A DNA stretch of 53,680 nucleotides, taken from Alphaproteobacteria bacterium (lineage in GTDB: Bacteria > Pseudomonadota > Alphaproteobacteria > JAJTHO01 > CANGYM01). The first letter of the stretch is position 1. Each line of letters opens with the position of its first letter. The DNA is taken from the NCBI GenBank assembly GCA_947458145.1, contig CANGYM010000001.1, positions 1-53,680 on the forward strand, written 5' to 3'. The position numbers were made by a program, and so were the translations under genes. Below, piece by piece: positions 2,987-49,069 of the stretch. The notes under the pieces are model-generated. The model had not been told where the DNA came from, did no database searches, and was given only the letters and a program-made list of their open reading frames with translations.

Positions 2987-4699
2987 ATGACCCTGAACGA
3001 TGATTTTTTGGAACGTTTGCGTGAATCCGTGCGGATCGAGGATGTTATCCGCGCCCGCATCCCCCTGAAAAAAGCAGGACATGAGTATAAGGGGTTATGT
3101 CCGTTTCATACCGAAAAAACCCCGTCCTTTCACGTCATTCCCAGCAAACAATTTTTTCATTGCTTTGGCTGTGGCGCCAGCGGTGATGTGATTAAATTTG
3201 TGAAGGATTTTGATAAGGGGGGATTTTTAGCAGCGGTGAAAACACTGGCGGATCTGGGGGGATTGACGATACCCACAGCGGAAACCGCCCCCGCCCCTGC
3301 TGAGGATACGCGGTATTTTACGCTGTATGAACAGGCCAGTGCCTTTTATCAACATACCTTGGCCAGCGACGGCGCCGCCCAGCGGTATCTGACCCAGCGG
3401 GGCATAACCGCCGCCAGTGTGAAACACTTTTCTTTGGGCTTTGCCCCCGATGCATGGGATGCCCTCAGCCGGTTTTTGATGACCAGAGACCACCGCCCCC
3501 ACGATATGGTGGAAGCAGGGCTGTGCGTTCAAAAGGATCTAAACCGCGCCCCCTTTGACCGTTTTCGGCACCGTTTGATGTTTCCCATCCAAAATCGAAA
3601 AGGGAAAGTTGTGGCCTTTGGGGGCCGAACCCTGCCCGGGGGGGGCGTTACGGATCATGCCGATGCCCCAAAATACCTGAATTCCCCAGAAACAGAGTAT
3701 TTTCAAAAAAACCGGATGCTCTATGGGTTGTTTCAGGCGCTGCCCACGCTGAGAAAAACCCGCCGCGCCACCGTGGTTGAAGGGTATACCGACGTTATCC
3801 TGTTGCACCAACAGGGTTACACCGATGCCGTGGCCCCGCTGGGGACGGCGTTTACGGAAACCCAAATGTCCATCCTGTGGTCCTTGGTGGATCAGATTGT
3901 GGTGTGTTTTGATGGGGATGCCGCCGGCATGCGGGCAGCCGAGCGCTGCATCCAGCGTATTTTGCCGGATTTGCGCCCCGAAAAATCCATCGCCATCATG
4001 ATGATGGATGTCGGCGAAGACCCCGCCAGCCTGATGGCCGCAGGGGGACAGGCCCGCTGGGATCAAATGCAAAATCATCCCCTGTCGATTCTGGATTTTT
4101 GGATGTGGATTCATCGCCAAACCTTGGCCGGATCAGGACACGACCGCGCGGCCCTGATGAAACAGCTGCTTTCGGATTGCGACGTGATTCGGGATCCGGA
4201 CTTAAGGGCTTTTTATAAACAAGATATTCGGGATCGTTTTTACCACGCGCGACGCGTCCCCTCAGCATTGTCAAAAAAACAACCCTTTGCGGGGATGGGG
4301 GGGCCCCTGCCCTCCCCCAAAGCCAATTTGGATCGGATGTGTTGCGCCCTGCTGGCGGATTTGGCCCATCATCCAGAGTGGTTAGAAGATGCCGCGGAAC
4401 TTTTGGGGCATTTGACGTTTCCCAACCCCCTGATTGATGCCATTCGGGGGCGCGTGGTGGACATGGCGGTTCAGGGACTTGACAAAACAACAGACCAACC
4501 CTATATCAATCCATCCCAGTGGATTCAGAATGCGCTTCCGGCGCTGGAACTTTGGAAATCAGACGCTGTCATGCCCCAGTTGTTTTTAAAGCCATCCCAT
4601 GATGTTTATGATCTTTGGCATGAAAGTTGTCTGAAACTGAAACGAAGTTTAGACCTGTCTCAATCTCGGCAAAAAAAGGCCGGAAGGCCCCTGCGATGA
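2987..4699 (+). CDS. dnaG: DNA primase
   Basis: CHC2 zinc finger CPFHTEKTPSFHV...FHCFGCGASGD and TOPRIM motifs (EGYTDV, FDGDAAG). It lies directly upstream of rpoD, the conserved dnaG-rpoD pair. Confidence 0.95.
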   Translation: MTLNDDFLERLRESVRIEDVIRARIPLKKAGHEYKGLCPFHTEKTPSFHVIPSKQFFHCFGCGASGDVIKFVKDFDKGGFLAAVKTLADLGGLTIPTAETAPAPAEDTRYFTLYEQASAFYQHTLASDGAAQRYLTQRGITAASVKHFSLGFAPDAWDALSRFLMTRDHRPHDMVEAGLCVQKDLNRAPFDRFRHRLMFPIQNRKGKVVAFGGRTLPGGGVTDHADAPKYLNSPETEYFQKNRMLYGLFQALPTLRKTRRATVVEGYTDVILLHQQGYTDAVAPLGTAFTETQMSILWSLVDQIVVCFDGDAAGMRAAERCIQRILPDLRPEKSIAIMMMDVGEDPASLMAAGGQARWDQMQNHPLSILDFWMWIHRQTLAGSGHDRAALMKQLLSDCDVIRDPDLRAFYKQDIRDRFYHARRVPSALSKKQPFAGMGGPLPSPKANLDRMCCALLADLAHHPEWLEDAAELLGHLTFPNPLIDAIRGRVVDMAVQGLDKTTDQPYINPSQWIQNALPALELWKSDAVMPQLFLKPSHDVYDLWHESCLKLKRSLDLSQSRQKKAGRPLR

Positions 4700-18345: not shown

Positions 18346-19128
18346 TCAAGTGGGTTTTTTGGGGGGGGCTGCATGATTTTGATCCTTCAGCTCTTGATAT
18401 TTGATATACGACAATAACGGAAACAGACCGGCGCACAGGGCGATACACAGCCCATAAACCCCTTCCTTGTACCCCTGACGTTTGACATAACAGTGAAAAA
18501 AACGGGAAAACAAACGCCGGATGTTGGGCCAAAGGCGGGTCCAATGGGGCGTATCGCCCATATCCAGGGCCTTGGCCGCGCTGTAACGGTTCAAGCGGGC
18601 GATCATGTCGGTGATGTTATCATCCACAAAATGATCAATACCGTGGGATAGGCGGGGACCCGCCAACCCCTGATAGGTCACCTGAGGATGCACCCGCTGA
18701 TCGTGCCAGTGTTTGGTGCCCTTTTGAAACAGACACCATTTGTTGCGAATCCCAAAGGATGCCCCCCAACCCTGTTTCACCAAGCGGGATCCAATATAAT
18801 TGTTGATGGGCACCAAATACCGCTGGGCTGTGGGGTTTTTTAACAGGGCCATAACCTCTTGGGCCATGGCGGGGGTCACGTGTTCATCGGCATCCACCTC
18901 CAAAATCCATGGCCCCTGACAGGCATCGATGCCTGCGTGACGGCGGGGCCCTTCACGGTCCCACGCGCCCTCGATCAATCGGGGGGTAAAGCGGGCGGCG
19001 ATGTCACGGCTGGCATCGGTGCAACGATCCAGCACCACCACAATTTCATCACAAAACCCCAAACGCGATAAACACGCGGCCAAGCGGGATTCTTCGTTAT
19101 GGGCAACAACCAAGGCAGACAGAAACAT
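18346..19128 (-). CDS. GT2 glycosyltransferase, LPS-core type (WaaE/KdtX-like)
   Basis: MFLSALVVAHNEESRL...IVVVLDRCTDAS...LEVDADEH (DxD) identifies the GT-A fold. The start is the ATG at 19126-19128, or alternatively 19167. Confidence 0.8.
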   Translation of the reverse strand: MFLSALVVAHNEESRLAACLSRLGFCDEIVVVLDRCTDASRDIAARFTPRLIEGAWDREGPRRHAGIDACQGPWILEVDADEHVTPAMAQEVMALLKNPTAQRYLVPINNYIGSRLVKQGWGASFGIRNKWCLFQKGTKHWHDQRVHPQVTYQGLAGPRLSHGIDHFVDDNITDMIARLNRYSAAKALDMGDTPHWTRLWPNIRRLFSRFFHCYVKRQGYKEGVYGLCIALCAGLFPLLSYIKYQELKDQNHAAPPKKPT

Positions 19129-19243: not shown

Positions 19244-19897
19244 TCAAACAACCCTCTGCCCCGTTTTTGCCCAATCGTCACGAAAGGCCGCCAGACCCTT
19301 TTCTGTCAGGCTGTGGGTGAAGAGTTGATAAAAAATCGACGGGGGGCAGGTCACCACATCGGCGCCGATCAAGCTGGCGCGGCGGACGTGGTCCGTGTGG
19401 CGGATGGAGGCCGCCAGAATTTCGGTTTCAAACCCATAATTGTCATACATATCCCGAATGTCCTGAATCAGGCCCATGCCATCTTGACCCTGATCATCCA
19501 AACGCCCAACAAAGGGGGAAATGTAGCTGGCGCCTGCCTTGGCGGCCAGCAGCGCCTGATTCAAACTGAAACACAGGGTGACATTCACGGGGATATGATC
19601 CTGACGCAACCGGCGACAGGTCATCAGACCGTCAACGGTCAGGGGGACTTTGATGACGATGTTTTTGCCCAGCGTCACCAGTTTTTCAGCCTCCCGCATC
19701 ATGGTGGGGTGGTCTTCGGCGGTGACTTCGGCGCTGATGGGGCCCGGGACGACGGCGGCGATATCCCGGATGACCTCTAAAAAATCCCGCCCCGATTTAT
19801 AAATCAAACTGGGGTTGGTGGTGACACCATCCACCAGACCCATCGCATTCAGCTTTTGAATTTCTGGCAATTCTGCGCTATCAACAAAGAACTTCAT
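19244..19897 (-). CDS. tal: Short-form transaldolase / fructose-6-phosphate aldolase family protein (217 aa)
   Basis: [16 protein letters not shown]...GVTTNPSL...IVIKVPLT...SPFVGRLDD match the type-3B transaldolase motifs. Confidence 0.9.
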
Positions 19898-19925
19898 GAC
19901 ATCTGAACCCATAATGCAGGAAACG

Positions 19926-21908
19926 ATGCATACTTTTGCAGACACTCAGGGCTTCGTCAATGTTTTGCTGCCCATGGTGCTGGATCGGCCCCTGACCTAT
20001 ACCACGTCACAGGATGTCTCGGTGGGGCAGTATGTCCGTGTTCCTTTTCGCAATCGGTCCTTAACCGGCATTGTGTGGGAAACGGATGTACCGCATCCCG
20101 CCCTGAAAACCCTGAAGCCCCTGCTGAAAATCCATGATTTTCCGCCGTTATCCCCAGATTTTATCGCGTTTTTAACATGGTGCGCGGATTATACCGTCAG
20201 CAGTATGGGGAAAATCCTGAAACTGGCCCTGCCGCTGCAGGATGCCTTTCAGGACACCCCCAGCAAGCAAACCTTTGCCCCGCCTCAGGTGGCGCATCGC
20301 TCTGTGGTGTTTGATGATGCCCAAAAAGTCGCCCTGACAAAACTGTTGTCGCTCACCACAGAGCATCCGGACAAAGTGGCCCTGCTGGACGGGGAAACGG
20401 GATCGGGAAAAACAGAGGTGTATCTGGACATTGTGGCCGCCGCGCTGGCACGGGGACAGCAAGCCCTGATCATGCTGCCGGAAATTGCCCTGTCCACCCA
20501 GATGCTGCGCCGGTTTTCGGATCGCTTCGGCGCGGAGCCCGCCCTGTGGCATTCCCATTTAACCCCCGCCAAGCGCCGCGACACGTGGCGGGCCATTGTG
20601 ACGGGACAGGCGCCCTTGGTGCTGGGGGCGCGATCGGCCCTGTTTTTGCCCTATCCCAATTTGGGCGTGATGGTGGTGGATGAGGAACACGAAAGCGCCT
20701 ATAAACAAGACGACGGCGTTTTATACCACGCCCGCGATATGGCGGTGGCGCGGGGGCACAGGGAAAATGTGCCTGTGGTTTTGGTATCCGCCACACCGTC
20801 GCTGGAAACGTGGCACCATGTGGAACGGGGCAAATATCACGGGGTGCGCTTAACCAGCCGGTATCAGGCCACGCTGCCCGACATCACGCTGGTGGATATG
20901 CGGGGCAGGCCCGCATCCCAAGGATGGCTGCATGAAACGGTGATTGATGAAACCCGTCAAACCCTATCCCAAAACAAACAGGCCCTGTTTTTTATGAACC
21001 GGCGGGGTTACGCCCCGATGACATTATGCCGCGGGTGCGGCCACCGCTGGCGATGCCGCGATTGTTCGTCGTATTTATCGGCCCACAAGGCCATCGGCGT
21101 TTTGCAATGTCATCATTGTGGGTATAAACAGCCCATGCCGGAAACCTGCCCCGCCTGCGGCGCGGGGGAAGATGCCCTGATTCCCTGCGGCCCGGGCGTT
21201 GAGCGCATTGCCGAGGAACTGGCCACGCACTTCCCCAACCAAGAGATCGCCATTGTGTCCAGCGATGTGCTGAGCACCCCCAAAAAAATGCACGAAACGG
21301 TACAGCGCATCACACAGGGTGAGGTATCCCTGATCGTGGGCACCCAAATGATCGGCAAGGGCTATCATTTTCCCGATTTGACGTTGGTGAATGTGGTGGA
21401 CGGCGATATGGGCCTGTCGGGGGGGGATTTTCGGGCGGGGGAAAAAACGTGGCAGATGCTGCACCAAATTGCCGGACGGTCCGGACGTGGGCAGCACGCG
21501 GGAAAAGTGCTGATTCAGACCTTTGTGCCGGATCATCTGTTGATGCAAACCCTGCAGCGCCATGATCGCGAAGGCTTTTATCGCGCCCTGATCAAAGAAC
21601 GCACGTTGGGCCACTGGCCCCCGTTTACCCGTCTGGCGGCGTTGATTGTGTCAGGACGGGCGCTGGTTCGGGTGGATGCGGCCTGCCGCACGTTGCTGGG
21701 GAGTGCCCCCAAAACCGATGCGTTTGAGGTTCTGGGCCCCGCCCCTGCCCCGCTGTCGCCGCTGCGCGGGGAACACCGTATGCGATTTCTGGTGCGCTGC
21801 GCCCCGCAAAAACGCCTGTCGGCCTATATGAAAACATGGCTGTCGGCCACCCCCCTGCCCCCCGATGTTCAGGTTCAGGTGGATATGGATCCGGTGTCGT
21901 TTGTGTAA
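19926..21908 (+). CDS. priA: Primosomal protein N' (replication restart helicase PriA)
   Basis: Walker [18 protein letters not shown], and the Cys-rich zinc region [17 protein letters not shown]...CHHCGY...CPACG are present. An AGGA lies 4-5 nt before the ATG at 19926. Earlier in-frame ATGs at 19896 and 19914 would overlap or abut the tal start. Confidence 0.9.
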
Positions 21909-21940
21909 AAGAATCGGCCCCTGAAGGGGTGGGGGATGGG

Positions 21941-22411
21941 TTAGCCGTTTGTATTTCCTTGCCATTGAAGAAATCCTAGGGCTACAGACCCAGAAGACTG
22001 AACAGGTTGGGTGTTGTTTTTTGGTGAATCAGGGCAAAGGACATAAACGGCCCTTTCCATAAAAGACAACACTTTTGGTATATCATGTGATCCGATTGGG
22101 GATAGCAATGCGGGACCCTTTGCATCTCCCTGTGAAGCAACAACTGTTCCTGTTTTGTCAAAGCCCACAGAAAATTTGTTCATCCTGTCGTGATAACGAA
22201 CAGAACTTTGGCCATTAAGAAAGCTGTCACCGTCTGAACATGACCCCCCATGGCGCGTAATTTCACCGTGAATGTCCCTCAGACGCTGGGAATTGGAAAC
22301 ATTCTCCTCGTGCCTAGGATCCTTAAAATATTGTCCCCCCCCCCCCCACACAGCCAACACAGCAGCAACACCAGCAACACCAGCCATCAATTGGCTTCTA
22401 GAAATCCCCAT
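21941..22411 (-). CDS. Secreted hypothetical protein, paralogue A (156 aa), carrying the poly-G tract
   Basis: It has a signal-peptide-like N-terminus MGISRSQLMAGVAGVAAVLAVW and two Cys (SCSDGD, VLCPDS). It shares the 5' control region and motif order with 22517-23086. The coding sequence is AT-rich. Confidence 0.6.
   Translation of the reverse strand: MGISRSQLMAGVAGVAAVLAVWGGGGQYFKDPRHEENVSNSQRLRDIHGEITRHGGSCSDGDSFLNGQSSVRYHDRMNKFSVGFDKTGTVVASQGDAKGPALLSPIGSHDIPKVLSFMERAVYVLCPDSPKNNTQPVQSSGSVALGFLQWQGNTNG
22335..22347. repeat. Homopolymeric tract C13 (G13 on the coding strand) within codons 22-26 of the 21941-22411 gene
   Basis: Direct count gives ttgt + 13 c + aca. The coding strand reads TGG GGG GGG GGG GGA (W G G G G). 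Confidence 0.95.
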
Positions 22412-22473
22412 ACCCCAATCCCCCCATTCAAAAATATAATGCGTTTATCCTACGGTTAAAAAAAGAAAAAATC

Positions 22474-22489
22474 TGTGACGGATGTCACG
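22474..22489. promoter_or_regulatory. TGTGA-N6-TCACG near-palindrome (core GTGAC-N4-GTCAC), copy 1
   Basis: tgtgacggatgtcacg lies 63-78 nt upstream of the ATG at 22411. It is embedded in a 25-nt block (22465-22489) identical to 23137-23161. Confidence 0.5.
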
Positions 22490-22516
22490 TTGTGGGGGCG
22501 CCGCAATGATGGGGGG

Positions 22517-23086
22517 TTACATTTGAAATGTAGGTGGTGCCAAAAGTTGCACAATCACAGGGTAAGAAGGTTCTTCCGATTTTGGCTTACAGGCTTTACT
22601 AACAGCCTCTTCCATGCCGCTCAAAAGTGCCTGATGTGTTTTGGTTGCATGTAAAGAAATATATGGCAATACAACCGTAGGAAGGGGTACTCCTTCCGAA
22701 AGTGGCTCTTCCTGCCCTTGGGGAGTAACCGCATAAGTGGGTATAATAGACACACTCCCATTTCTTAGTAACATAGCCTCAGTTTGAAGGGATAAGTTAT
22801 AGACTGGTGAAACAGGACCAACTGTGCTGGGGCCTTGCCATAAAGTTAGTATTTTTTTTTCGACAACACCGCCTGTTTCATCTGTAGAGACGGTAGTATT
22901 TCCATTTGAACAACGATATTCTGAAGGGCCCTTGATCCTACTCCCGTTTGTACGAATTGTTTGCTCCAACGCCCGAACCCGCTCTGCATCAGTCAAACCC
23001 TGCTGGGCCCCCACAGGCCCCGCCTGAACCAACACACAAGCCGCTGCTGCCGTCGCAACACTCAAGAATCTGTTGAACAACCCCAT
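22517..23086 (-). CDS. Secreted hypothetical protein, paralogue B (189 aa)
   Basis: It has the signal peptide MGLFNRFLSVATAAAACVLVQAGPVGAQQ and two Cys (YRCSNGN, KACKPKS) in the same order as paralogue A. A shared C-terminal motif reads LLSGMEEAVSKAC here and VLSFMERAVYVLC in A. I chose the ATG at 23084-23086, because the track start 23206 includes the upstream operator. Confidence 0.6.
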   Translation of the reverse strand: MGLFNRFLSVATAAAACVLVQAGPVGAQQGLTDAERVRALEQTIRTNGSRIKGPSEYRCSNGNTTVSTDETGGVVEKKILTLWQGPSTVGPVSPVYNLSLQTEAMLLRNGSVSIIPTYAVTPQGQEEPLSEGVPLPTVVLPYISLHATKTHQALLSGMEEAVSKACKPKSEEPSYPVIVQLLAPPTFQM

Positions 23087-23145
23087 ACCCCACCCCCATT
23101 GAAAAACATTATTCCCCCACCATACGGGCATTGTTGGAAAAAATC

Positions 23146-23161
23146 TGTGACGGATGTCACG
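23146..23161. promoter_or_regulatory. TGTGA-N6-TCACG near-palindrome, copy 2
   Basis: The same 16-mer lies 60-75 nt upstream of the ATG at 23086 and 56-71 nt upstream of the divergent dnaB start. Confidence 0.5.
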
Positions 23162-23216
23162 GAATGGGGTTATGCTGAAAAGATAATCGCGCTTCCCCCA
23201 TGACAATGGTTCCAGA

Positions 23217-24740
23217 GTGCCCTATAAACACTTTATGACCGACACGTTATCCCCTTTGCACGCCCAAGGTGCCCTGTCCCGAACCCCGCCCGCAAATTTG
23301 GAGGTGGAGCAAGCCCTGCTGGGCACTCTGCTGGCCAACAACACGGCGTATGAACAGATTGCGGATTTTCTGTTGCCGGACCATTTCGCCCATGGTTTGC
23401 ATGCCACCCTATACAGTGCCATTGTGCGGATGATTGACAAAGGGCAGATGGCCAGCCCCCTGACCCTAAAACCGCTGTTCGAGGATCATGCGGACCTCGC
23501 CCCCTTTGGCGGGGGCGGCGCGTATTTACAGGATTTGGCCGATTCCGTCATATCCAGCATCAATATCCATGATTTCGCCCGCATCATTTACGATTACGCC
23601 CTGCGGCGCAATCTGATTGACGTGGGACAGACGGTGGTGAACAACGCCTTTGATCTGGCCCGCGACGGCACCGCCATGGATCAAATCGCCGAAACGGAAC
23701 ACGCCCTTTACACCTTGGCCACCAAGGGCATGGCCCAAAAAACCTATGTGGCCTTTGGCAGCACCCTGACCCAAACCATGAAAATTATTGAGGCGGCCTA
23801 TAAGAGAGAAGGGGCCCTCAGCGGCCTGTCCTCTGGCTTTACGGACATGGACCGGTTGCTGGGGGGGCTGCAAAATTCCGATTTGATTATTTTGGCGGGG
23901 CGGCCATCCATGGGAAAAACGTCTCTGGTCACCAACATGGCGTTTCATGCATCGTCCCATGCCACCATCAAACGGCAAACCAACGGCGAGGTCAAAGTCA
24001 CCAACGGCGCCGTCGTGGCCTTTTTTTCGCTGGAAATGTCGGCGGAACAGTTGGCGTCCCGTATTTTGTCGGAACGGGCCAACGTGCCATCGGAAAAAAT
24101 CCGTCGGGGGGATTTAACCGATCAAGAATTTCAAAATCTGGCGCAGGCCGCCCGCGATCTGGCGGAAATTCCCCTGTATATTGACGATACGCCGGCCATT
24201 TCCGTATCCAGCCTGCGCACGCGGGCGCGAAAATTAAAACGCCAGCACCAGCTGGGCCTGATTGTCGTGGATTATCTGCAGCTGATGCAGGCCAGCGTGG
24301 GCGGACGCCCCGAAAACCGCGTGAATGAAATTTCCGAAATCACCCGCGGCCTGAAACAAATCGCCAAGGAATTACAAGTTCCTGTCATTGCCCTGTCCCA
24401 GCTGTCGCGGGCCGTGGAAAACCGCGAAGACAAACGCCCCCAACTGGCCGATTTGCGGGAATCCGGATCCATCGAGCAAGATGCCGATGTGGTCATGTTT
24501 GTGTACCGCGAGGAGTACTATCTGCAGCGCAACGAACCCACCCAGCGCCAAGATGAAGGCAAAGACGCCCACCAAAAACGCTATGACGAATGGATGACCC
24601 GACTGGCCGAGGCCGAAAACATCGCCGAAGTGATCATCGCCAAACAACGACACGGCCCCACGGGGAAGGTCAAGCTGTTCTTTGACGGATCCACCACAAA
24701 ATTCAGCGATCTGATGCAGGATGGCGGGCAGAAGGGTTAG
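23217..24740 (+). CDS. dnaB: Replicative DNA helicase
   Basis: PPANLEVEQALLGTLL is the DnaB N-domain. Walker A GRPSMGKTS, VDYLQLM and SQLSRAVENREDKRPQLADLRESGSIEQDADVV are present. There is no intein-sized insert. Confidence 0.95.
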   Translation: MPYKHFMTDTLSPLHAQGALSRTPPANLEVEQALLGTLLANNTAYEQIADFLLPDHFAHGLHATLYSAIVRMIDKGQMASPLTLKPLFEDHADLAPFGGGGAYLQDLADSVISSINIHDFARIIYDYALRRNLIDVGQTVVNNAFDLARDGTAMDQIAETEHALYTLATKGMAQKTYVAFGSTLTQTMKIIEAAYKREGALSGLSSGFTDMDRLLGGLQNSDLIILAGRPSMGKTSLVTNMAFHASSHATIKRQTNGEVKVTNGAVVAFFSLEMSAEQLASRILSERANVPSEKIRRGDLTDQEFQNLAQAARDLAEIPLYIDDTPAISVSSLRTRARKLKRQHQLGLIVVDYLQLMQASVGGRPENRVNEISEITRGLKQIAKELQVPVIALSQLSRAVENREDKRPQLADLRESGSIEQDADVVMFVYREEYYLQRNEPTQRQDEGKDAHQKRYDEWMTRLAEAENIAEVIIAKQRHGPTGKVKLFFDGSTTKFSDLMQDGGQKG

Positions 24741-41613: not shown

Positions 41614-42750
41614 ATGGCCGATTATTATCAACTTTTGGGTGTTGACCGCAATGCCAGTGCAGAGGACATCAAAAAGGCCTTTCGCAAACTGGCCATGAAA
41701 TACCATCCCGATAAAAATCCTGGGGATGTCAAGGCAGAGGAAACATTTAAGGAAATCAACCAAGCCTATGAGGTTTTAAGCAACGCTGAAAAGCGCAAAA
41801 CCTATGATCAATACGGCCATGAACATTATCAACGGGCCCAATCAGGGGGGGGTGCGGGGCCTGGGGGCTTTGATTTTTCTTCTGGGTTTTCAGATATTTT
41901 TGACGAGGTTTTCAATGACTTCATGGGCGGCGGGCGCAAACGTCGCGGCGGTGGCTCTATGCAGCAACCGGGCTCGGACCTGCGCTATAATTTGGATATT
42001 ACGTTAGAAGAAGCCTTTAAGGGCAAAAAAACCACCATTAAATTTTCATCCCAGATGGCCTGCGAATCCTGTCAAGGAACCGGCGCCGCCGAGGGGTCAT
42101 CCCAAGTCACCTGTCCTAGCTGTCAGGGGGCAGGGCGTATCCGGTCTCAGCAGGGATTTTTTGCCTTCGAGCGGACCTGTGCCCAATGTCAAGGGGCCGG
42201 CGTCATCATTGAAAAGCCCTGTCGCCCTTGCCAAGGCCAAGGCCGCGTGAACAAACAGCGCACTTTAGAGGTCACCATCCCCGTCGGGGTCGAAGATGGC
42301 ACCCGCATCCGTTTGGCCGGTGAGGGAGAATCCGGCCTGCGCGGCGGCGGTGCTGGGGATTTGTATATTTTTCTTTCCATCAAGGCCCATACATTTTTTG
42401 AACGTCAAGCCGAACATTTGTTTTGCCATGCCACCATCCCCATGGTCACGGCCACTCTGGGCGGGATCATCGAAATTCCGGGGATTGAGGGAAAACGTCT
42501 GAAAGTCCCCATACCCGAAGGCACCCAAGCCGGCCAGAAAATCCGCCTGAAAGGACAGGGGATGCCCAAATTGCGATCCACCCTGCGGGGGGATTTGTAT
42601 ATTGACGTCACCGTAGAAACCCCCGTCAACCTGACGGAGCGTCAAAAAGAGCTGCTGAAGGAATTTTCCGGCATCGGCAACAAAACCAGCCCAAAATCCG
42701 AAGGGTTTTTTGATAAAATCAAGGGATTATGGGGCGATTTGACGGAATAA
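41614..42750 (+). CDS. dnaJ: Chaperone DnaJ (Hsp40)
   Basis: J-domain DYYQLLGV...[10 protein letters not shown], a G/F-rich region, and four CxxCxGxG zinc-finger repeats. Confidence 0.97.
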
Positions 42751-47916: not shown

Positions 47917-49069
47917 GGCGCAGTTCCCATTGCACAACATCGGTGCGGCCATTGCGAAACGCCGCAATACAGCATGTCAAATAAAACCGCCAAAGGCGAA
48001 TGAATTTATCATCAAAACCCATGGCTTTGATGTCCTTTAGTTTATTTTCAAAATTCATCAGCCAGTGATTTAACGTCACGGCGTAATCTTGGCCAAACGA
48101 AAAGGCATCGGTGATTTTCAGGCCGGCTTTTTCTGTTTCCTCATGAAAACGCCGCGGAGAGGGCAACATCCCCCCAGGAAAAATAAACGTCCGAATGGCA
48201 TCACCACCCTGACGATAACGATGAAAAAAAGCATCCGCAACGGTGATGCTTTGAATCACCGCTTTTCCTTTTTCTGCCAGCAATTCCTTGATTTTTGAAA
48301 AATAAACCGGCCAAAAGGCTTCGCCCACGGCCTCGAACATTTCAATGGACACGATGTGCTGGTAACGGTCTTTTTGGTGCCTGTAATCCTCTAATGCAAT
48401 ATCCGCATTGTTTCCCACCCGCTGACGGGCAAATGCCTGTTGAGCGGGGGAAAGCGTCAGACCCTTAATGGCATAATCCCCCCGTGTCAGGGCGCGTTCC
48501 ACAAACCCCCCCCAGCCGCAGCCAATTTCCAAAACACTGCCCGACGGGTCCAATCGATCCAGAATGCGGTCATATTTATTGGTTTGGGCCTGTTCTAAGG
48601 ATTCCTGTTGATTCTGAAACAACGCCGAAGAATAGGTCATGCTGGGATCCAGCCACAGGGCATAAAAATCATTGCCCAAATCATAATGGGCCTGAATATT
48701 TTTGGAACTGCCGCGCAGCGTGTTGCGATTCAGCAAATACCCGATACGGGATGCCAGACGTCCCCAGATATTGCCAAAGATATACCGCGCCAAGGCATCT
48801 TGGTTTTGCAATCCAAAAAGGAAAAAAGCGCTGGTGTCCGGCGAATCCCAACGTCCATCCCGATAGGTTTCTGCCAACCCGATATCCCCCCGCTGGATCA
48901 TACAGCGGGCGACATTCCAGTCATGCAGCACAAGATAGGCCTCGGCCCCTGATTGCTTCCCCTGAAAATCATGGCGTTGACCATCGGGGGTTTCCACCGT
49001 GATGGCCCCATAATCAATACGGCTGAGGGCACGTAGAAAGGATTGTGTGATATGGCGATCGAGCATCAT
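47909..49069 (-). CDS. Cyclopropane-fatty-acyl-phospholipid synthase-family SAM methyltransferase
   Basis: AHYDLGNDFY, the VLEIGCGWGGF SAM motif, and SIEMFEAVG. Confidence 0.88.
   Translation of the reverse strand: MMLDRHITQSFLRALSRIDYGAITVETPDGQRHDFQGKQSGAEAYLVLHDWNVARCMIQRGDIGLAETYRDGRWDSPDTSAFFLFGLQNQDALARYIFGNIWGRLASRIGYLLNRNTLRGSSKNIQAHYDLGNDFYALWLDPSMTYSSALFQNQQESLEQAQTNKYDRILDRLDPSGSVLEIGCGWGGFVERALTRGDYAIKGLTLSPAQQAFARQRVGNNADIALEDYRHQKDRYQHIVSIEMFEAVGEAFWPVYFSKIKELLAEKGKAVIQSITVADAFFHRYRQGGDAIRTFIFPGGMLPSPRRFHEETEKAGLKITDAFSFGQDYAVTLNHWLMNFENKLKDIKAMGFDDKFIRLWRFYLTCCIAAFRNGRTDVVQWELRHA

Follow-up and report, generated by a model that had tools for sequence, protein, structure and literature searches.

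The window analysed here is a 53,680-nucleotide (nt) stretch of DNA from Alphaproteobacteria bacterium (assembly GCA_947458145.1, contig CANGYM010000001.1, positions 1 to 53,680 of the forward strand). Between priA (19896-21908, plus strand) and dnaB (23217-24740, plus strand), both identified with Pfam, it carries a small minus-strand gene for a 156-amino-acid (aa) protein, which is probably exported as judged from its N-terminus. The 5' coding region of this gene contains a run of 13 guanines, whose likely role as an expression switch is the subject of this work. The gene and its parts are located as follows:

21941..22411, minus strand: host gene encoding 156 aa, with signal-like N-terminus, Gly run, variable core (predicted to be alpha-beta5-alpha, two invariant Cys) and conserved C-terminus
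22348..22411, minus strand: ATG and signal-peptide coding segment, codons 1-21 and the T of codon 22, rich in GCT/GGT/GTT
22335..22347, minus strand: G13 homopolymer, proposed slipped-strand switch, codons 22-26 (TGG GGG GGG GGG GGA) of the open reading frame (ORF) 21941-22411, in frame (ON) in this assembly
21941..22006, minus strand: approximate position of the conserved 3' end, which covers some 66 terminal nt of the gene

The homopolymeric tract and its effect on the reading frame

On the minus strand the gene starts with the codons ATG GGG ATT TCT AGA AGC CAA TTG ATG GCT GGT GTT GCT GGT GTT GCT GCT GTG TTG GCT GTG TGG GGG GGG GGG GGA CAA TAT TTT AAG, in which positions 22335-22347 form 13 consecutive G (C13 on the plus strand). 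An earlier note on this DNA, made from the sequence alone, had placed a G13 at these positions in codons 22-26, described it as in frame and called it a clear outlier in the window. The sequence and the ORF reading bear out the position, and with G13 the 156-aa ORF is indeed obtained. The outlier status was confirmed by a census of all homopolymers, in which no other G/C run exceeded 8 nt; for an independent and identically distributed sequence of the same composition, about 0.002 G/C runs of 13 nt or more are expected in 53.7 kb. The 8-nt runs listed in the same note were correctly located in mreB (2343-2350), in dnaJ (41845-41852), in a cfa-like gene (48506-48513) and at 18361-18368, but the run in dnaG lies at 3638-3645 and not at 3648-3655, and a sixth run, a G8 in priA at 21419-21426, had been omitted.

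The composition of the tract is also unusual at the codon level. In the 26 long ORFs of the window GGG makes up 34% of the Gly codons, and none of the 11 other runs of at least three Gly in the long genes of the window consists of GGG only. In the related alleles described below, the tract is a pure homopolymer wherever it is present, across body types with diverged adjacent DNA.

The consequences of length changes were examined by simulating different tract lengths in the window gene. Tracts of 7, 10, 13 or 16 G gave the full-length 156-aa protein, whereas all other lengths gave stubs of 27-44 aa. The alternative frames meet a TAA four codons past the tract and a TGA eighteen codons past it; because both contain stops, every length outside 7, 10, 13 and 16 leads to early termination. 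The earlier note had expected that a change of one nt in either direction would truncate the product after roughly 25-30 residues. This holds for the gain of one nt (G14, 29 aa), but for the loss of one nt the figure was somewhat short (G12, 43 aa). By its position the tract thus controls expression in the simulation, since lengths that are not 1 modulo 3 break the frame, and the ATG and the ribosome-binding context are conserved in all loci.

Tract length and frame in related genomes

For comparison we used the DNA encoding homologues of the protein, obtained from ENA, JGI, NCBI and Logan. These loci come from freshwater metagenomes or metagenome-assembled genomes labelled 'Alphaproteobacteria bacterium'. 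A metagenome scan with a conserved 24-mer matched three contigs, one of which (L015) was unreliable and was set aside from the tract comparison. The loci with enough flanking sequence are syntenic and contain dnaB, sometimes a paralogue, the gene, sometimes a HigBA-like pair, and priA. Every locus keeps the ATG, the G-rich ribosome-binding context ahead of it (GGGGGGATTGGGGT) and the upstream 24-mer, which allows the reading frame to be traced across loci.

The length of the tract in related genomes, a comparison that had been suggested in the earlier note, is not invariant. At the same position the lengths were 9, 9, 9, 10, 10, 11, 13, 13, 13 and 17 nt on at least ten independent contigs from four data sources, representing at least four body types. 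The range of 9-17 nt includes differences that are not multiples of three, and both ON and OFF states occur. Relative to the conserved ATG there are six distinct ON and three distinct OFF tract alleles. The state of each locus is given below.

L002 (the window): G13, ON, 156 aa
L005: G10, ON
L009: G9, ON
L011 and L012: G9 each, ON
L016: G17, ON as far as the partial contig reaches
L001: G11, OFF, stop at codon 34
L003 = L004 (two JGI samples): G10, OFF, stop at codon 26
L006: G13, OFF, stop at codon 31
L017 (1-17): G13, contig ends 4 nt upstream of the tract, frame not readable
L015 (reverse strand, about 300-430): about G23, unreliable, a garbled G-rich stretch joining a paralogue-like 5' part to a type-D body
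L007 = L008, L010 and L013: no tract (L007/L008 read GGGGAAACC), ON

In all three OFF alleles the body of 130-142 codons is open, and in none of them was a second disabling mutation found. Because the body is uninterrupted, gene callers still predict proteins from alternative starts in these alleles. The odd N-termini of the predicted proteins P0003 and P0004 (LLLVLLLLCWLWGG...) are signal-peptide DNA read in the +1 frame. The closest pair of loci, L006 (G13, OFF) and L009 (G9, ON), is identical at 317 of 319 positions of the body (99.4%) and at 67 of 67 positions of the promoter and leader. Control runs on the same contigs, which are shorter than the tract, did not vary: the C8 in priA kept its 8 nt in all 7 loci compared, and the C7 in dnaB its 7 nt in all 6. 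This polymorphism of length and frame, with a body ORF that is still open, supports the phase variation that the earlier note had proposed.

Divergence, selection and mosaic structure

Compared to the window, dnaB of the related loci is 95-98% identical and priA 92-98% identical. The body of the gene between them is either partly alignable, at 74-86% identity, or alignable over the last 66 nt alone. These last 66 nt are 100% identical to the window in L011 and 98.5% identical in L012, despite bodies that cannot be aligned, and we infer that the conserved 3' end may act as a recombination anchor. Across at least four body types, the signal-peptide DNA beside the tract retains 67-87% identity. 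L006 and L009, with their nearly identical bodies, are 67% identical in the signal-peptide segment and about 50% identical at the 3' end; this patchwork of identity indicates that the alleles are mosaics with the tract at a junction.

Ratios of nonsynonymous to synonymous substitution rates (dN/dS) were calculated with our own Nei-Gojobori script and are approximate, as the sequences are short and recombining. For the gene the values were 0.68-7.5, with most pairs above 1 and several pairs at 2.4-7.5. On the same contigs dN/dS was 0.01-0.05 for dnaB, 0.11-0.17 for priA and 0.56-0.78 for the paralogue; nucleotide differences in the flanks are almost all synonymous. The high dN/dS together with the invariant Cys, Gly and Pro residues of the protein is more readily explained by diversifying selection acting on a functional protein than by decay.

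Possible donor sequences for a cassette mechanism were looked for in the window. With up to three mismatches allowed, there was a single occurrence each of the conserved 3' 24-mer and of the 5' pre-tract 22-mer in the 53.7 kb, and silent donor cassettes were not found within that range. Gene conversion of the pilE/pilS type was rejected, as the window contains no silent partial copies and the mosaicism is seen between genomes and not within one.

Properties of the encoded protein

The protein starts with MGISRSQLMAGVAGVAAVLAVWGGGGQYFKD. Its N-terminus has Arg5 as one basic residue, followed by a hydrophobic stretch of 14-15 residues and the Gly run, with a Kyte-Doolittle mean over 11 residues of up to 2.45. 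It looks like a Sec signal or signal anchor, in which the Gly run would be a linker or cleavage region. A search of two large protein collections gave 32 family members. The residues G55, C58, C126 and P136 (window numbering) are invariant. The leader is common to most full-length members, most members have the Gly run, and a conserved C-terminus GSVALGF(L/F)xxQGxxNG is found in most full-length members, with C-terminal peptides that are identical. Between the conserved 5' and 3' ends lie middle sections of at least five body types that are mutually unalignable.

Searches of Pfam, NCBIfam, PADLOC and PHROGs gave no meaningful match for the gene, the paralogue or three further family members. 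A 12-bit match to CglE was not considered meaningful, and a match of the N-terminus of P0017 to an Rz-like spanin (E = 0.001) was attributed to the hydrophobic leader. AlphaFold2, using an alignment of 11 sequences, produced a model with a mean predicted local distance difference test (pLDDT) score of 59.5, in which core residues 40-128 scored 70-81; the other four models scored about 40. We are moderately confident in the alpha-beta5-alpha fold that is predicted for this core. When the AlphaFold2 model was compared with the PDB using Foldseek the best hit had an E-value of 0.11, with nothing below 0.1. By these searches the protein fits none of the described families.

The signal-peptide segment contains short in-frame GCT/GGT/GTT repeats of which the copy number differs among alleles. 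L006 has seven GCT codons in a row (L006:708-778) and L007 has five; GCTGGTGTT units occur in the window and in L011, and P0024 has a run of 12 Ala. Differences in repeat copy number alter the length of the hydrophobic region and keep the frame.

Proposed switch mechanism

Slippage is frequent in poly-G/C tracts from about 8-9 nt, and switching rates of genes that are phase-variable through simple sequence repeats (SSRs) are about 1e-5 to 1e-2 per division. The locus has the features of this class in its repeat length (G13 here and 9-17 nt in relatives), in the expression-controlling position of the repeat and in an inter-strain ON/OFF polymorphism with an intact ORF. With its signal-like N-terminus, its invariant pair of Cys and a dN/dS that is mostly above 1, the gene also resembles typical contingency genes in profile. 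We consider it likely that the tract is a translational ON/OFF switch, operated by slippage, in a small, diversifying gene, and regard the locus as a very well supported candidate rather than a demonstrated switch. In the proposed mechanism slipped-strand mispairing during replication would add or remove G, and the gain or loss would shift the body into or out of frame with the conserved ATG. Changes that preserve the frame would merely add or remove Gly in a tolerant linker or cleavage region past the hydrophobic segment. By analogy with established SSR contingency loci, length changes would be frequent and reversible, giving mixed populations of ON and OFF cells. The evolutionary pattern suggests that the product may be exposed and recognized by an agent such as phage, grazers or competitors, so that its expression would be alternately useful and costly.

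The assemblies demonstrate that lake populations of this alphaproteobacterium hold both putatively expressing and putatively non-expressing alleles. The same comparison demonstrates a further diversification of the gene by amino-acid substitution and by mosaic recombination, which acts between the conserved 3' end and a 5' module, likewise conserved, that consists of promoter, signal peptide and tract. A wider interpretation, which we put forward tentatively as a possibility, is that this is a contingency locus of a free-living, planktonic lake bacterium, at which variation would occur in two layers at one fixed chromosomal site between dnaB and priA. The poly-G switch would be one layer. The other would be modular allele replacement, in which a 5' module with a palindrome-bearing promoter, the signal peptide and the tract, and a 3' end of 66 nt, frame at least five unrelated bodies under diversifying selection, with the tract at the mosaic junction. 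Both layers would be kept by pressure from phage, grazers or competitors and not by host immunity.

Alternative explanations

Some observations weigh against a switch. Three allele types lack the tract and are yet in frame (L007/L008, L010 and L013), so a switch is not indispensable to the gene. Such intact tract-less alleles would be expected if the tract were a mutational hotspot without a switching role, that is, a side effect of the poly-Gly linker encoded by a dispensable gene that evolves fast, with the out-of-frame alleles as young pseudogenes. Relaxed constraint could likewise give a dN/dS near or above 1, the island tolerates gene loss as the paralogue is absent from L005 and L009, and database and fold searches gave the protein no known function. 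A linker maintained at the protein level should mix Gly codons, however, as all 11 other Gly runs do, and the homopolymer persists over at least four body types despite the divergence of the adjacent DNA. Since the alleles are related by descent and so were not sampled independently, this argument from codon purity is suggestive and carries no formal probability. Furthermore, three OFF alleles without a second lesion over 130-142 codons are not what pseudogenes would lead one to expect, and the pairs with dN/dS of 2.4-7.5 occur alongside invariant Cys, Gly and Pro. We therefore consider a mere hotspot unlikely. Also to be set against a switch are the four contigs that encode exactly the window protein, all of which have G13, although this set was ascertained by the identical protein, which makes G13 necessary. 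The window has a single long tract in 53.7 kb, and thus no sign of further loci of a multi-locus phasome was found in it; such a phasome is typical of classic phase-variable organisms and is not required.

The length differences, and the out-of-frame ones in particular, could also stem from miscalled homopolymers or from the choice of consensus when metagenomes were assembled from short reads. The three OFF alleles are one nt from an ON length (L003/L004 and L006 at +1, L001 at -1 or +2), homopolymers of 10-17 nt can be off by one in such assemblies, and the garbled stretch in L015 and the end of L017 at the tract indicate that assemblers struggle there. Broken or wobbling assembly is also expected from heterogeneous tract lengths, however, and the trouble in L015 and L017 could come from reads that differ in tract length as well as from G runs that sequence poorly. 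Two JGI samples (L003 and L004) yielded the G10 OFF allele in identical form, and differences of at least 3-4 nt (9, 13 and 17) are too large for miscalls, including the G13 and G9 that precede nearly identical bodies in L006 and L009. The G/C runs of 7-8 nt on the same contigs are invariant, though shorter than the tract. Miscalling as the source of the polymorphism is thus quite improbable. That the tract as a whole is a poly-G artefact of sequencing (two-colour chemistry), assembly or polishing, the last two of which the earlier note had raised, was rejected because there are unique conserved flanks on both sides and the tract is at the same codon position in ENA, JGI, NCBI and Logan assemblies; L015 alone is artefact-like. 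The invariant control runs and the identity of L003 and L004 likewise make it unlikely.

The tract might also act as a rheostat instead of a binary switch, if slippage of RNA polymerase, for which long homopolymers are known substrates, or alternative starts allowed OFF genotypes to make some protein, either full-length or with an altered N-terminus. Ahead of the tract, the frame that runs on into the body codes for a Leu-rich hydrophobic peptide, LLLVLLLLCWLWGGG, in L003/L004 and L006 (L003:3001-3045; L006:730-790). This frame starts at a TTG, which in L003 has GAGGA 7 nt upstream. Gene callers accepted starts in the shifted frame, and a GTG just ahead of the tract is a further candidate start. 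A Leu-rich peptide with a TTG start means that OFF may be leaky or may give a product with an altered N-terminus or membrane targeting, which is a further point against a strict ON/OFF switch. On the other hand, in L001 a stop followed by RTIDCCWCCFTCGGGG precedes the tract in the OFF frame, which offers no upstream start codon, and the Leu-rich frame may be no more than an automatic result of GCT/GTT-rich DNA. We judge a rheostat very improbable.

Comparison with known systems and ecological setting

The poly-G tract of pilC in Neisseria gonorrhoeae and N. meningitidis lies within the signal-peptide coding region. Phase variation of pilC through this tract was reportedly described by Jonsson et al. 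in 1991. The proposed switch resembles pilC in having an in-frame 5' poly-G, which in pilC is 9-20 nt, in a gene for an exported (here probably exported) protein, with ON/OFF slippage and length differences between strains, although switching is here inferred from assemblies. It differs from pilC in its host, an uncultured freshwater alphaproteobacterium as compared to a human-restricted betaproteobacterium. Membership of the PilC family was rejected, as there was no Pfam or NCBIfam match and no significant fold match in the PDB; the likeness is in mechanism only. Experimentally established in-frame tracts of Neisseria genes include G(9-20) in pilC, G(9-21) in pglA, G(9-20) in lgtA and C(9-13) in nalP (PMC5953494), and the tract described here agrees with these in type and in its range of lengths.

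For phase-variable capsule modification in Campylobacter jejuni, phage is a documented selective agent according to PMC6321876, PMC8224891 and references in PMC11868660. The contingency genes of C. jejuni are similar to the locus described here in that G/C homopolymers of about 8-13 nt lie in surface-related (here putatively surface-related) reading frames, with ON/OFF differences in C. jejuni both between and within strains. They differ in number, with tens of tracts per genome as compared to one long tract in 53.7 kb and a paralogue tract in some relatives. The products differ as well, being glycan-modifying enzymes in Campylobacter and a small unannotated protein here.

The CTCTT repeats of the Neisseria opa genes lie within the signal-peptide coding region. 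As with Opa, a repeat switch in the leader region, here a proposed one, occurs together with a mature protein that is hypervariable among alleles and shaped by mosaic recombination (tract range from PMC5953494). In contrast to the pentamer CTCTT repeat and the multi-copy beta-barrel outer-membrane proteins of the Opa system, the repeat is here a homopolymer at a single locus with a tandem paralogue, the core is predicted to be alpha-beta5-alpha, and no silent or extra copies occur in the window. The homopolymeric tracts of Mycobacterium tuberculosis are shorter than the tract found here. Frameshift indels in coding homopolymers of that organism, for example ESX-1-associated ones, were proposed to be reversible and adaptive (PMC11898584), and the likeness lies in frameshifting indels in coding homopolymers of an organism that is not classically phase-variable. 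M. tuberculosis differs in being a pathogen, for which the evidence includes clinical isolates and experiments.

The mechanism, SSR phase variation, is known, and it is the ecological setting that is unusual. Nearly all descriptions of repeat-mediated phase variation concern host-adapted pathogens and commensals. According to a recent review, phase variation at multiple loci seems to be confined to pathogens, possibly through database bias (PMC11868660). Within the literature searched, full-text searches returned no paper joining phase variation, homopolymeric tracts and freshwater metagenomes, and none with such a locus in Alphaproteobacteria. Among the relatives, L001 belongs to a TYMEFLIES bin from Lake Mendota, and several of the JGI ones are probably also from the Lake Mendota time series. 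Because several alleles apparently come from this 20-year, 471-sample series, changes in ON/OFF state and in allele type could be traced over time in nature, on existing reads. If the proposed switch is real, bet-hedging by hypermutable repeats would extend to free-living bacterioplankton, and the new hypervariable, probably exported protein family would be a likely interface with phage or predators.

Promoter element, tandem paralogue and gene content of the island

The gene and a tandem paralogue form a two-gene island (window 21800-23200) with a GC content of 0.44-0.50, as compared to 0.55-0.63 for the flanking priA and dnaB. Apart from the host gene it contains the following features:

22412..22497, minus strand: leader and promoter region, with a conserved 33-nt element at 22465-22497 that includes the palindrome GTGAC-N4-GTCAC (22475-22488), then a T-rich run
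22517..23086, minus strand: tandem paralogue, 189 aa from a conserved ATG at 23086; public gene callers start at 23131 (204 aa)
23137..23169, minus strand: second copy of the 33-nt element, palindrome at 23147-23160, upstream of the paralogue in the divergent intergenic region adjoining dnaB

A search of the 53.7-kb window with Rfam gave no family at the gathering threshold, and no tRNA, rRNA or riboswitch was detected at that score. The perfect palindrome GTGAC-ATCC-GTCAC followed by AGATTTTTTC occurs twice in the window, as compared to 0.01 copies expected, and a 24-nt core of the 33-nt element is exact in every related locus examined. The element is probably a shared operator or promoter element, with GTGACATCCGTCAC as a candidate binding site. 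An intrinsic terminator formed by the palindrome and the T-run was rejected as the main reading and is unlikely, as the stem is only 5 bp and the copy at 23147-23160 sits in a divergent intergenic region with no upstream gene to terminate.

The paralogue and the host gene have the same upstream element and start context as well as common CSNG and LSxMExAxxxC motifs, and the direct repeats D1 and D2 are spaced 672-675 nt apart. An hhalign comparison of the host-gene family with the paralogue covered 17 columns with a probability of 61%. The designation as a paralogue is thus putative and is based mainly on the duplicated upstream element and start context, in addition to the short motifs. In the window the paralogue contains an A9 run at 22852-22860 (T9 on the plus strand), which is interrupted in L014. 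In relatives a mid-gene G tract is found in frame, with G10 in L003 (2637-2646) and L004 (2302-2311) and G7 in L014 (minus strand, about 700-706); the window copy does not have it and its sequence differs there. These runs of the paralogue may be a second, weaker slippage site.

In L005 (2850-3000) and L009 (1-204) the paralogue is missing, and the dnaB-side sequence joins the promoter element of the gene directly. This loss is as expected for a deletion by recombination between the direct 33-nt copies. An insertion between the gene and priA, which is not in the window, is found at L003:3486-3803, L006:1234-1551 and L009:687-1348. It encodes a protein of the dnstrm_HI1420 family (PF21716) in all three loci and in L009 also a Gp49-like protein (PF05973, weak match), which suggests a HigB/HigA-type toxin-antitoxin pair. 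The insertion is further evidence that the site between priA and dnaB may be a hotspot for changes in gene content.

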